This document shows, one piece after another, positions 19,032 to 47,803 of a stretch of 64,000 nt of DNA (position 1 is the stretch's first letter; every line of letters starts with the position of its first letter). The notes under the pieces are model-generated. The model was not told the DNA's origin. It saw nothing but the letters and a program-made list of their open reading frames with translations, and made no database searches. Both the position numbers and the translations under genes were made by a program. Origin of the DNA: Eledone cirrhosa (taxonomy: Eukaryota); NCBI GenBank assembly GCA_964016885.1, contig OZ024740.1, forward strand, positions 107,942,001-108,006,000. The letters run 5' to 3'.

Positions 19032-19795
19032 ATATATATATATATATACATATATATATATATATACATATATATATATATATACATATATATATATATA
19101 CATATATATACATATATATATATATACATATATATATATATATACATATATATATATATATACATATATATATATATACATATATATATATATACATATA
19201 TATATATATACATATATATATATATACATATATATATATATATACATACATATATATATATACATATATATACATATATATATATATATACATATATATA
19301 TATATATACATATATATATATATACATATATATATATACATATATATATATACATATATATATACATATATATATATATATACATATATATATATACATA
19401 TATATATACATATATATATATATATACATATATATACATATATATATATATATACATATATATACATATATATATATATATATGTATATATATATATATA
19501 TATATATATATATATATATATATATATATATATATACATATATATATATATACATATATATATATATACATATATATACATATATATATTTCGTTTCTGA
19601 ATTTGTTTAGCACGATTCATTATCTGAAATCGTGTGTTGAAACCGATATTGTTATACTTTGGGAGGGTCATGTTGCCAATAAGAAACACACGCACCAGTT
19701 GCTTTCACTTCAATTTATTATATATTTATAAATTTACAAATTAATAAATTTCTGGTTGGTTGGTTGGTTCCACAACCAGATAGTTGTTTATATAT

Positions 19796-19840
19796 AGTCA
19801 TAGTTCTTTCGTCACACACTCTGTGACCTCTTCAGTGACT
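19796..19840 (-). ncRNA. Minimal type I hammerhead ribozyme
   Basis: Same sequence as 18381-18425. Confidence 0.75.
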
Positions 19841-19947
19841 GGGGATTCCTTTCTTTGTTTCTGTGCCTCTCCTTTGTTCTGTCCTCAGAAACAAAATGGC
19901 GTAGGACAGAACAAAGGAGAGGCACAGAAACAAAGAAAGGAATCCCC

Positions 19948-19992
19948 AGTCACTGAAGAGGTCACAGAGTGTGTGACGAAAGAACTATGACT
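19948..19992 (+). ncRNA. Minimal type I hammerhead ribozyme
   Basis: Same sequence as 18381-18425. Confidence 0.75.
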
Positions 19993-20897
19993 ATATATAA
20001 ACAACTATCTGGTTGTGGAACCAACCAACCAACCAGAAATTTATAAATTTGTAAATTTATAAATATATAGTAAATTGAAGTGAAAGCAACTGGTGCGTGT
20101 GTTTCTTATTGGCAACATGACCCTCCCGAAGTATAACAATACATATATATATATATATATACATATATATACATATATATATATATATACATACATATAC
20201 ATATATATATATATACATACATATATATATATACATACATATATATATATATATACATATATACATATACATATATATATATATATATATACATATATAT
20301 ATATATACATACATACGTACATATATGTATATGTACGTATATATGTGTATATAGATGTGTATGTATGTGTATGTGTGTACACATGGACTAGAGTAAGTAT
20401 GTATATATGTGTGTGTCTATACGTGTGTATATAAAGATAAGTTGAGTATGAAAATGTATACACATGAGCGCGTATGTATGTACATGAATACATGTGTGTA
20501 TATATATGTGTATGCATGTGTATATATATGTAAGTATGAATATGTGAATTGTGAGTATATGTATTTTGTAGAGGTCTGCAAATATATTTGTGTGTGAATG
20601 CGTGGGTGAAAGGATACGTACACTTGAAAGAAAAATTTTAGTCTGAATGTTAATTAAGTGCAAACACAAAACCAACCACGCATATCTTTACTATCTCTAA
20701 TCCTTCTATAGATTTAGAAAAATAACCAATAATATATTCTATAAAAAATGTCAAAACAACAGATGGGAATCTAATTACTCACTGCCACCAAGAATTCTCA
20801 CTGCTATCGAAAAAACCACTCCTTCAACTATTCTTCTAACAACTTCACCCCTCCCTCCTAATATTCTCTATAAAAACTAAATAGGTCCTCAGTAATA

Positions 20898-21017
20898 TTA
20901 TTCTGATGAAATGACAGTAAATAATAACATTGAAATATTGAATGTCTGCATAACTAAAAGTTTGTAGATAGCAGCTGTTTTAGGTTATGTAACTGTTATA
21001 GAAACACGTGTCAATAA
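20898..21017 (+). ncRNA. Type I hammerhead ribozyme in a PLE 3' end (~20625-21054)
   Basis: UUAUU-CUGAUGA-A-AUGACAGU...ACUGUUAU-A-GAAA-CACGUG-UC-AAUAA; GUC triplet, palindromic helix III. Confidence 0.8.
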
Positions 21018-21054
21018 ATTCCTTTCAACTAAACTGTATCCATTCAAATCTTTC

Positions 21055-21851
21055 TATATATATATACATATATATACATATATATATATATACATATATA
21101 TATATATATACATATATATATATATACATATATATACATATATATATATATATACATATATATATATATACATATATATACATATATATATATATACATA
21201 TATATACATATATATATACATATATATATACATATATACATATATATATATACATATATATATACACACATATATATATATACATATATATATATACATA
21301 TATATATATACATATATATATACACACATATATATATATACATATATATATACATATATATATACATATATATATATACATATATATATACATATATATA
21401 TACATATATATATATACATATATATATACATATATATATATATACATATATATATACATATATATATACATATATATATATATACATATATATATACATA
21501 TATATATACATATATATATACATATATATATATATACATATATATAGATATATATATACATATATATATATACATATATACATATATATATACATATATA
21601 TATATATATACACATATATATACATATATATAAACATATATATATACATATATATATATACATATACATATATATACATATATATATACATATATACATA
21701 TATATATACATATATATATACATATATATATATATACATATATATATATATACATATATATATATATATATATATATATATATATATATATATACATATA
21801 TATACATATATATATATATACACATATATATATATACATATATATATATAC
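21055..21851. repeat. Degenerate (TA)n/(TACA) microsatellite
   Basis: Seen directly; similar tracts at 3860-4364, 19032-19587, 24191-25065, 27500-28379, 33157-33776, 38491-39136 and 39481-40506. Confidence 0.98.
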
Positions 21852-45900: not shown

Positions 45901-46007
45901 AAGCCGACCTTACCCAACTACACCTCTCAAAGTCAATGACACACGACCGTGACTTCTGGCGTCACGCAGTAATACAGGGTACCCGACCTCCCATGGGTAC
46001 ATGCTGA
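42984..46007 (+). CDS. RTE ORF (APE + RT + PHD finger), uninterrupted but missing its native start
   Basis: [35 protein letters not shown]4HC3; the ORF-track N-terminus from 42789 is unrelated sequence. Confidence 0.85.
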
Positions 46008-46305
46008 AGCATATAAACAATATGCCCCCCCCCCCCCCACCGCAAGGTGGTCGTGGAGGTGCCACGGCAAAAAAGCACCCAGCCGACACTGTAAAGTGGA
46101 CGTGTAGGCGCCACGAAAAAGCACCCAGCACTCACTGTAAATGAGGTTGGTGTTAGGAAGGGCATCCAGCTGTAGAAATCAAGCCAGATCAGTTCCTGTA
46201 TGAGCAAGGCATGGTCAGCCGACCAGACACTGCCCACAACAGGACAACCCGTCTCACCCATGCTAGCGTGGAAGAACGGACGTAAAACGGTGATGATGAT
46301 GATGA
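42984..46305 (+). mobile_element. RTE LINE, near full length (subfamily C)
   Basis: Begins inside the first APE motif; 3' UTR and (GAT)n tail present. Confidence 0.95.
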
Positions 46306-47218
46306 TATATATACATATATATGTATATACATATATATATATATATATGTATATACATATATATATATATATGTATATACATATATATATATATATATGT
46401 ATATACATATATATATATATATATATACATATATATATATATATATGTATATACATATATATATATATATATATATGTATATACATATATATATATATAT
46501 ATGTATATACATATATATATATATATATGTATATACATATATATATATATATGTATATACATATATATATATATATATGTATATACATATATATATATAT
46601 ATATATATGTATATACATATATATATATATGTATATACATATATATATATATATGTATATACATATATATATATATATATATGTATATATATATATATAT
46701 ATATATGTATATACATATATGTATATACATATATATATATATATATATGTATATACATATATATATATACATATATATATATATATATGTATATACATAT
46801 ATATATATATATATATATGTATATACATATATATATATATATATATGTATATACATATATATATATATATGTATATACATATATATATATATATATGTAT
46901 ATACATATATATATATATATGTATATACATATATATATATATATATGTATATACATATATATATATATATATATATATATATTTATATACATATATATAT
47001 ATGTATATACATATATATATATATATATTTATATACATATATATATATGTATATACATATATATATATATATGTATATACATATATATATATATATATGT
47101 ATATACATATATATATATATATATGTATATACATATATATATATATATATGTATATACATATATATATATATATATATATATATATATATACATATATAT
47201 ATATATATATATATATAT
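46306..47218. repeat. Degenerate (TA)n microsatellite
   Basis: TATGTATATACATA units, seen directly. Confidence 0.98.
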
Positions 47219-47377
47219 ATATTGTTATACTTTGGGAGGGTCATGTTGCCAATAAGAAACACACGCACCAGTTGCTTTCACTTCAATTTAATTTAATATA
47301 TATTTATAAATTTACAAATTTATAAATTTCTGGTTGGTTGGTTGGTTCCACAACCAGATAGTTGTTTATATATATAT

Positions 47378-47422
47378 AGTCATAGTTCTTTCGTCACACA
47401 CTCTGTGACCTCTTCAGTGACT
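47378..47422 (-). ncRNA. Minimal type I hammerhead ribozyme
   Basis: Same sequence as 18381-18425. Confidence 0.75.
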
Positions 47423-47542
47423 GGGGATTTCTTTCTTCGTTTCTGTGCCTTTCCTTTCTTCTATCCTACGCCATTTTTACGCCAGAAAAAATGGCGTAGG
47501 ATAGAAGAAAGGAAAGGCACAGAAACGAAGAAAGAAATCCCC

Positions 47543-47587
47543 AGTCACTGAAGAGGTCACAGAGTGTGTGACGAAAGAACTATGACT
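47543..47587 (+). ncRNA. Minimal type I hammerhead ribozyme
   Basis: Same sequence as 18381-18425. Confidence 0.75.
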
Positions 47588-47803
47588 ATATATATATAAA
47601 CAACTATCTGGTTGTGGAACCAACCAACCAACCAGAAATTTATAAATTTGTAAATTTATAAATATATATTAAATTAAATTGAAGTGAAAGCAACTGGTGC
47701 GTGTGTTTCTTATTGGCAACATGACCCTCCCAAAGTATAACAATATCGGTTTCAACACACGATTTCAGATAAAGAATCTTGTTAAACAAATTCAGAAACG
47801 AAA

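Follow-up and report, generated by a model that had tools for sequence, protein, structure and literature searches.

Two palindromes of ~570-575 bp (loci A and B) lie head-to-head in long (TA)n tracts of a 64,000-nucleotide stretch of the Eledone cirrhosa genome (contig OZ024740.1, positions 107,942,001 to 108,006,000; the whole stretch is called the window in what follows). We conclude with good confidence that they are two-armed, head-to-head insertions into (TA)n of the pseudo-long terminal repeat (pLTR) of a Penelope-like element (PLE), the arms of which were likely reverse-transcribed inward from their outer ends and met at the likely 5′ end of the RNA, near AAAATGGCG. A first-pass annotation of the window had placed palindromes at 19588-20140 and 47219-47803, where they are indeed found, and had read them as ribozyme-bearing elements resembling miniature inverted-repeat transposable elements (MITEs), each with a second arm primed by its own first; the data presented below speak against both parts of that reading.

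The palindrome arm is the pLTR of a 4.4-kb Penelope-like retrotransposon

A 41-nt ribozyme-like word from the palindrome arms has 4,950 copies in the 3.0-Gb genome, of which 2,467 are forward and 2,483 reverse, against none for a control word read backwards. Three same-strand copies of this word, spaced 4,423 bp on contig C1, led us to a tandem array (L031) with a period of 4,423 bp, which comprises two full units and a terminal pLTR at 99.98% identity. One L031 unit serves as the reference for all unit coordinates, with U1 defined as the first A of AAAATGGCG. Positions U1-U259 correspond to the end of the unit (its 3′-terminal 259 nt, the pLTR), and the array itself stops at ...GTATAACAAT followed by (TA)n. 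Positions U260-U316 are the start of the next unit and continue directly into an open reading frame (ORF) of 1,329 codons.

The whole 1,329-residue ORF product gave no Pfam match at E up to 0.01, and only the parts cut out from its C-terminal and reverse transcriptase (RT) regions did so: the last 160 residues match GIY-YIG (PF01541; 24.9 bits, cut-off 22.6, E 2.6e-5), and the RT region matches RVT_1 weakly (23.1 bits, under the cut-off of 29.6, E 6.8e-5). Inspection of the translation by eye reveals YVDD, a CX4CxxC linker before the GIY-YIG core, and the arrangement ...VVYSIRC...C...IVYIGET...EH with inner cysteines. The ORF has 43 homologues, the best of which is an Octopus vulgaris protein (69% identity) that carries the UniRef name "Reverse transcriptase domain-containing"; a search by sequence against solved structures returned no relevant match. 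The parent is a PLE with a C-terminal endonuclease, the palindrome arm is its pLTR, and the additional ~58 nt of the long arm (see below) is the known PLE "tail", that is, the first stretch of the next unit. The retro origin proposed in the first-pass annotation stands in this form, with the arm as a reverse-transcribed 3′ region (pLTR) of a PLE.

Several further observations concern this element. The tail (U260-U316) is nearly invariant (L032-L111), even in arms just 90-93% identical to the reference elsewhere, which may reflect selection on the source elements for the ORF start or for a protein-binding region. A satellite at G000:C1:132947043-132947575 harbors 12 tail-to-ORF junction words exactly 46 bp apart, and represents the region around the outer start site of reverse transcription. 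The N-terminal third of the ORF (L031 1381-1908 and the same part of each unit) is an asparagine-rich internal repeat region that gives weak cross-matches in unrelated flanks. Finally, sampled words of locus B are present in public runs of 16 different organisms, in shares of 0.83 down to 0.13, and the family may be common to related species.

Layout of the two palindromes

In unit coordinates, the two loci are composed of the following segments.

19590..19885, minus strand: locus A long arm, pLTR from U11 to ~U316; older subfamily; 94% match to the L031 full-length unit
19590-19647, minus strand: locus A long-arm tail, the outermost ~58 nt
19886..20140, plus strand: locus A short arm, seven upstream bases CAGAAAC (19886-19892), then U1-U257/259; its end is GTATAACAAT
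47221..47478, minus strand: locus B short arm, U1-U257/259; younger subfamily; outer end ATTGTTATAC, the reverse complement of GTATAACAAT
47479..47487, plus strand: locus B center, 9 nt ACGCCAGAA, a short repeat of the end of the other arm (ACGCCA), then GAA
47488..47803, plus strand: locus B long arm, U1 to ~U316; its tail is 47745-47803

At both loci the short arm terminates at GTATAACAAT(AT) and the long arm extends ~58 nt beyond, to ...CAGAAACGAA, just as the first-pass annotation had described, including its remark that both ends of a third insertion (17562-18565) also stop at GTATAACAAT. Its common fold-back site, put at ~50 nt upstream of the hammerhead motif, is likewise present: the turning point of both loci is at or near AAAATGGCGTAGGA, and a CUGAAGA...GAAA motif follows ~55-60 nt downstream. 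The two arms of locus B are 100% identical across their shared part. The seven bases CAGAAAC of locus A are those that precede U1 in older-subfamily PLE copies (e.g. L042, L087, and L092). Imperfect (TA)n and (TATACA)n microsatellites on the scale of kilobases surround the insertions (47803-51700 and many other stretches) and dominate repeat searches of the window.

Outer ends of the insertions across the genome

We sampled the first 80 listed loci of the ribozyme word on contig C1 (0.3-82 Mb), skipping the L031 array and the last pair of the list, and mapped 122 arm pieces on the unit, of which 118 were kept and four (<86% identity) dropped. The 3′ ends of the 118 arms fall into two classes, with 60 at U256-260, 53 at U311-324, and five elsewhere; the majority of these arms are ordinary 5′-truncated PLE copies. 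Head-to-head pairs number 30 among the 80 loci, and their inner breakpoints range from within the pLTR to 2.6 kb upstream. Twenty-nine of these pairs have mixed outer ends, one at the short site and one at the tail site, and none has two ends of the same kind; the odd pair has an aberrant end at U179.

For a second tally, each kind of end was located by exact pattern matches next to TA repeats over the first 42.9 Mb of contig C1, the same stretch as the sample. The 196 ends so obtained form 48 outward-facing neighbor pairs within 6 kb (100 ends are unpaired at this stringency), which segregate into 45 mixed, three tail/tail, and no short/short pairs. The inserts of these pairs measure 68 bp to 5.7 kb, with nine of the 48 within 500-625 bp. 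Exact counts over the whole genome give 12,480 short ends and 11,422 tail ends abutting (TA)n (a TA repeat of at least 11 nt), which, with the location of both window loci within (TA)n, defines a (TA)n target preference. By comparison, U259 continues into U260 in 12,478 cases, and tails continue into the ORF in 459 cases and no more.

These data reveal the palindromes as the short end of a continuum of two-armed insertions that includes 5′-truncated and full-length PLE copies. They are not a discrete MITE-like family: sizes run from 68 bp to 5.7 kb, and the marker variants that we followed occur in short and long copies alike. Short palindromes as a lineage of their own were considered and rejected, as both marker variants (tail T, 126 copies; G, 256 copies) also occur in long copies.

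The census further bears on whether the inverted arms are artefacts of assembly or rearrangements of simple insertions after the fact, which we find scarcely credible. Such structures do trouble assemblies, as PMC8557442 notes, and public-run contigs over 47335-47630 are short (58-158 nt, from a high-copy family) with none spanning the center of locus B, an outcome that says nothing about the palindrome or its expression. Against this, one precise architecture is repeated at thousands of places, its two defined end types in near-equal numbers of 12,480 and 11,422, and aged pairs have diverged arms (~5% in L029 and L092), as expected of real DNA that ages.

Relatedness of partner arms and diversity of centers

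We next consider an alignment of 135 arms covering U25-U250. The partner arms of 21 pairs differ at a mean of 2.0 sites, whereas random re-pairing of the arms gives a mean of 6.2 (minimum 4.0), and none of 5,000 shuffles reached the observed value. A rare variant, GTGTAACAAT, tells the same story: it is found in 256 copies, or ~1% of ~25,000 arm ends, and among its first 30 places the G is on both arms in eight pairs and on one arm only (G|A) in one. Both arms of a locus derive from the same source, which on these sequence comparisons would most simply be the same RNA. Rare variants are common to partner arms in three of the 21 pairs, compared to 17 of 1,991 control pairs. In a nearest-neighbor test the partner is the nearest or co-nearest arm in 25 of 42 cases, a test of low power for young copies, since 25 arms are identical in the compared columns.

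The claim that arms are related by locus holds in one part, in that partners share a haplotype (2.0 versus 6.2 sites), and not in another, in that the two arms of locus A share no rare variant and are not mutual nearest relatives. The 20-mers that had been called private to each window locus turn out to be subfamily markers: of the 135 arms, 50 have one and 58 the other, and the two arms agree in every informative pair.

The centers, on the other hand, are diverse, and differ among most of 37 adjacent minus/plus arm pairs. Some are perfect extensions into the upstream sequence (L046, L092, and L102), some contain one to five odd bases (L004, L006, L007, and L034), and some have short duplications (L008 and locus B). 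One recurrent center type, TCCTACGCCAGAAA..TGGCGTAGGA, is related to the center of locus B and is found in 24 copies genome-wide; among the loci seen, the tail is on one arm in seven and on the other in two. Differing centers, and a tail found on one arm or the other, show that the palindrome is not propagated as a single unit, and the suggestion that the junction is formed anew at each insertion is upheld by the differing centers. A separate observation was made at L097 (G000:C1:71027750-71030400), where positions 1320-1364 hold three tandem 14-mers, GTAAACACCATTTT, at the center of an otherwise perfect young palindrome, which suggests repeated template slippage where the arms joined.

A true MITE-like unit, or a hairpin RNA copied whole, with inverted arms simply inherited, has in its favor the 24-fold recurrence of one center type and the identical 19-nt center string of L046 and L102. 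The differing centers of most adjacent pairs, the placement of the tail on either arm within the recurrent type, the size continuum with variable inner ends, and the lack of transposase-type terminal repeats besides the arms themselves all argue the other way, and make this reading very improbable.

A hot spot of arm 5′ ends and a likely RNA start

For those 96 sampled arms that extend to the ribozyme motif and whose 3′ end is of a standard kind, the 5′ ends are distributed relative to U1 as follows: 23 arms end at -30 to +5, eight at +6 to +55, 18 at -31 to -500, 17 at -501 to -1000, and eight beyond -1000, and 22 ran off the fetched stretch. Many arms of the U1 region carry 3-15 extra bases that match the PLE sequence upstream of U1, namely CACACAAAC in the younger and CACAGAAAC in the older subfamily (including locus A), as expected of an RNA 5′ end slightly upstream of the motif. 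The sharp hot spot at AAAATGGCG is most simply interpreted as an RNA 5′ end, in keeping with the recurrent breakpoint at the motif, and the RNA start there, that the first-pass annotation had proposed from the window. The start site would be located 3-15 nt upstream of AAAATGGCG, which we take to be YY1-like, with a GCGCATGCGC box upstream of it; the full-length unit has GGCGCATGCGCA, presumably NRF1-like, ~40-50 nt upstream of U1. The putative start sites point outward from the palindrome center, and the rod-like RNA with a ribozyme in either polarity envisaged in the first-pass annotation, a hypothetical product, would require transcription to enter from outside and read through. For Penelope, a TATA-less promoter internal to the pLTR region has been published (PMC2377424).

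The bases upstream of U1 also bear on a further reading, in which the ~575-bp palindromes would sustain themselves as a non-autonomous family, with transcripts from divergent promoters of their own and the PLE protein copying them in trans, rather than being by-products of RNAs started in the pLTRs of longer PLE copies. Several features are compatible with it. The center of locus B resembles that of another palindrome type (ACGCCAG, an A-run, and TGGCG), as would be expected if its template came from one; close relatives of locus B have GAA, not CAAAC, upstream of U1; and short forms are numerous, as the nine of 48 pairs at 500-625 bp attest. However, most near-U1 arms of the unbiased sample carry PLE 3′ untranslated region context (CACACAAAC or CACAGAAAC) upstream, which indicates that the template began in a pLTR preceded by PLE sequence. 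Both marker variants are found in long copies as well, in pairs 2.4 and 5.4 kb apart and in a same-strand repeat 4.3 kb apart, and center duplications like that of locus B also arise in single events (L008 and L097). We regard a self-propagating family as unlikely, if worth keeping in mind.

Direction of synthesis and proposed mechanism

The direction in which the arms were likely made can be read from their ends, of which the inner ones vary and the outer ones are fixed. In 19 of the 30 sampled pairs the two arms differ at the center by 62-2,288 nt. Some partner arms hold the outermost sequence alone: that of L077 is 15 nt of tail, after which come CTGA and the U1-259 arm, and others are similar (U292-319 in L048, U249-319 in L068, U233-319 in L109, U219-319 in L106, and U219-259 in L090). 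Partner arms of this outermost-only kind must have begun at the outer end and halted early. Both kinds of outer end are found at the heptamer AATATCG, which occurs at U255-261 and U315-321, 60 nt apart, and the ATAT within it could pair with the TA-repeat target; TA-rich stretches elsewhere within the arm are unused as ends.

We propose that one RNA would start at the pLTR promoter and be bound near the pLTR-ORF junction, the template likely being any RNA that begins at a pLTR promoter. The element protein would nick both strands of an AT-rich target, and each 3′ end would prime reverse transcription. The first nick would prime at the inner site (U259), with the outer site (U316) remaining single-stranded, and the nick on the other strand would prime at that outer site. 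Both cDNAs probably copy the same RNA molecule and would run toward its 5′ end, with host repair joining them; where both reach the RNA 5′ end, the product would be a ~575-bp palindrome. With the inner site used first and the outer one still single-stranded, short/short pairs would be absent and tail/tail pairs few. We infer that this one-RNA model accounts for the one-of-each rule, for single arms of either kind, for the shared haplotype, for the hot spot at U1, and for the symmetric stops.

A stricter version of the mechanism can be put forward only tentatively, as possible though somewhat doubtful. It holds that the two start sites of reverse transcription are obligatorily coupled, one per strand, with a single RNA copied twice, inner site first, by one probably dimeric ribonucleoprotein particle, and that the palindromes would be complete double copies of an RNA from a YY1/NRF1-type pLTR promoter. 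If this is true, thousands of divergent promoter pairs have been seeded in the genome, each facing an outward hammerhead.

The first-pass annotation had instead derived the second arm from the first, with a cDNA that reaches the RNA 5′ end, snaps back, and primes the second arm on itself, so that a single priming event suffices. A haplotype common to both arms is what such self-priming would give. Inner ends that are within 30 nt of each other in 11 of the 30 pairs, four of them away from U1, are also in line with it, as are short inverted copies (at least 12 nt) of the own 5′ end beside five of 31 single arms, against none in the control (of the five, L065 is TA-like and L055 an undetected pair), and the centre-anchored inverted pieces without a 3′ end held by L079 and L035. 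Nevertheless, centre-anchored fold-backs are short (13-22 nt) and confined to ~3 of 31 single arms, and in 19 of 30 pairs the center is asymmetric. The outer end of the second arm is fixed at two sites rather than variable (mixed in 29 of 30 and 45 of 48 pairs), and arms do not end at the TA-rich stretches of their interior. Partner arms made up of only the outermost 15-100 nt (L077, L048, L068, L109, L106, and L090) cannot have started at the center. Furthermore, the published biochemistry, as far as PMC11167929 presents it, shows extension of both strands. Self-priming as the origin of the second arm is improbable on this evidence; fold-back does occur, giving short pieces, and is a minor route at most. 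Opening of a hairpin by a nick at U259 on a fold-back intermediate was also considered; it explains the one-tail rule and fails on the asymmetric pairs and the outermost-only partner arms.

Although we favor arms reverse-transcribed inward from two outer sites, a number of points weigh against this interpretation or narrow its base. The sampled loci come from one contig, and the exact ribozyme word by which they were chosen leaves out arms of less than ~200 nt as well as copies that have diverged. Start site and template alike are deduced from DNA copies only, and the RT membership of the parent ORF is weak, with an RVT_1 score below the Pfam cut-off. The one-of-each rule is broken by the three tail/tail pairs and by the tail-less/tail-less composite at 17562-18565, and PMC11167929, in the experiments it describes, saw no difference in start sites between strands, so that a strict rule of this kind is not predicted by that work. 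Of the 23 pairs not centered at U1, four (L050, L093, L064, and L078) come close to symmetry, their inner ends being separated by 7-28 nt; such pairs should be rare under independent stops and fit two copies of one broken RNA and, equally, fold-back. Finally, inverted pieces anchored at the center and without a 3′ end (~30 nt in L079, 39 nt in L035, 22 nt in L049, and 19 nt in L105) were not primed from outside.

A hammerhead-like motif on each strand of the palindromes

The arms of both loci harbor a hammerhead-like motif, found at the following positions.

19797..19841, minus strand: locus A long arm, reverse complement of the motif at 19948-19992; exact 41-mer of the 4,950-copy word
19948..19992, plus strand: locus A short arm, from direct reading and the fold of the identical locus B copy
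47378..47422, minus strand: locus B short arm, from direct reading
47543..47587, plus strand: locus B long arm, minimum-free-energy fold with a helix I of 5 bp and a helix II of 6 bp

By symmetry, each DNA strand of a palindrome encodes one copy of the motif, which is composed of an AGUCA/UGACU helix I, CUGAAGA, a bulged G, a 6-bp helix II, GAAA, and a helix III of 2 bp with 2 nt; CUA precedes the UGACU. The conserved hammerhead core (CUGANGA...GAAA, with U-H before the cleavage site) is present, with helices I and II on its flanks. The sequence of helix II is not the same in the two families of the window and stays paired in both (GUCACA/UGUGAC versus GUUGCA/UGCAAC), and the bulged base 5′ of helix II is a G in family 1 and a U in family 2. 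The minimal hammerhead ribozyme of PLEs, as described in PMC4209133, has a helix II of 6-8 bp with an unpaired 5′ base, a helix I of 4-5 bp, and a minimal helix III, and the predicted traits of the motif agree with that description. The helix III stretch AGAACU is non-palindromic; animal hammerheads that act as dimers are described in the same source as having a palindromic helix III/loop 3.

No hammerhead family is found among 46 Rfam matches (E up to 10) to locus A (19580-20150), where an E-value scan yields microRNA-precursor-like hits that merely reflect the perfect hairpin. A gathering-score scan of the whole window with Rfam returned no hammerhead either, its sole hit being a weak tRNA-like match. 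"Ribozyme" in this work refers to a match to the motif and designates a predicted ribozyme. On their own, published PLE hammerheads are poor at cleavage and depend on dimers or protein, according to PMC4209133 and PMC11167929. The possibility that hammerhead cleavage sets the ends of the arms was rejected, as the predicted site (after CUA, ~U105) is not the end of any arm class.

The composite insertion and other features of the window

The window contains a third two-armed insertion, a composite with a second PLE-related family.

17562..18565, no strand assigned: composite two-armed insertion, both ends ...GTATAACAAT, with a tail at neither end

Its left part is 225 nt of the second family, reversed and ending in ...GTATAACAAT. 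The right part is the second family in forward orientation, with its own AAAATGGCGTAG and CUGAUGA...GAAA motif, and joins U36-U258 of family 1 at 18361, a join that could be a template switch or a nested insertion. The second family (17562-18360; relatives L113-L117) is abundant, as 2,835 first-look candidates indicate. A AAAATGGCGTAG box, a CGCATGCGCA box, and a CUGAUGA...GAAA motif of its own are among its features. Typical copies run on past 18360 with the reverse complement of 17562-17725. The two families have in common only their last ~25 nt (ATGACCCTCCC.AAGTATAACAAT).

Retrotransposon ORFs of the long interspersed nuclear element (LINE) type, which are unrelated to the palindromes, are found between or near them at 9064-12447 (minus), 22362-24695 (minus), 25285-28392 (minus), 42735-46007 (plus), and 34325-35683 (plus), and encode AP-endonuclease, RVT_1, and a PHD finger. 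The tRNA-like match of the Rfam scan, at 15432-15503 (minus), is weak (30.2 bits at a gathering score of 29) and possibly a tRNA-derived repeat.

Comparison with known systems

PLE insertions as described in PMC8557442 have inverted 5′-truncated copies, a 30-40-bp tail that is often at one end only, and a bias for (TA)n. The family reported here is like these canonical, endonuclease-positive PLEs in its tandem units forming a pLTR, its head-to-head inverted 5′-truncated copy, its extension at one end, its insertion in TA microsatellites, its CX4CxxC linker before GIY-YIG, and its hammerhead-like pLTR motif. It differs from that account in a tail of ~58-60 nt rather than 30-40, in a one-tail rule that is nearly absolute, in the many insertions that consist of the pLTR only, and in being a cephalopod family. 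It is a new family of a known kind, and the shape of its insertions is already described for the PLE class.

The closest biochemical counterpart is the Poseidon PLE of Anolis carolinensis (PAc). In the experiments with purified lizard PLE protein reported in PMC11167929, the protein, a predicted dimer, cleaves and extends both strands of AT-rich DNA in vitro; reverse transcription begins at two internal sites that are close neighbors and have the tail between them, and hammerhead cleavage is dispensable. Putatively shared with PAc are the two adjacent start sites near the pLTR-ORF junction with the tail between, the cutting and extension of both strands of AT-rich DNA, and ends that are set without ribozyme cleavage. 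In PAc, the sites are used without strand preference or target homology, going by that article, whereas here there is one site per insertion end and both sites are at AATATCG, the ATAT of which could pair with (TA)n; the features of the cephalopod family are known from sequence, those of PAc from the purified protein.

Animal non-LTR retrozymes (LTR, long terminal repeat) are, as PMC7229834 and bioRxiv 10.64898/2026.07.22.740005 portray them, short, non-coding hammerhead sequences related to PLE pLTRs and probably moved by PLE protein, a likeness to the palindromes. They form head-to-tail tandems and circular RNA through the ribozyme site, however, whereas the arms of the window loci and of the 30 sampled pairs face each other head-to-head, with ends located elsewhere than the predicted cleavage site. 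The 80 sampled loci include no short tandem array of the arm, and the only tandems seen are those of the 4.4-kb unit.

Two further systems offer partial parallels. Twin priming of human LINE-1 likewise involves two cDNAs primed on both target strands, a head-to-head inversion, and variable inner breakpoints, but its segments are different parts of one RNA and its second priming site is non-specific; in the insertions described here, both arms span the same 3′ region and come from two defined start sites. MITEs are also short, non-coding, numerous, palindromic-looking, and located in AT-rich DNA, and differ in that we are dealing with the retro-copied end of a retrotransposon, with variable inner ends, unequal outer ends, and no uniform unit. 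Any target-site duplication would be masked by the TA repeats of the flanks.

Searches of the main text of open-access articles turned up neither a description of these cephalopod elements nor a tally of the one-tail rule. PLE transposition is still poorly understood, and the first in-vitro system, from 2024, could not show how two events combine in a real insertion. With some twelve thousand ends of each kind, the Eledone cirrhosa genome is a natural record of such insertions, with one start site per end, a common source of the two arms, and a sharp 5′ limit at a promoter-like motif. In annotation, "palindromic repeats" of this type should be given the label of PLE insertions rather than that of MITEs or of a new ribozyme-bearing element. 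The record can be mined further, and its features are constraints for any biochemical model of PLE insertion.

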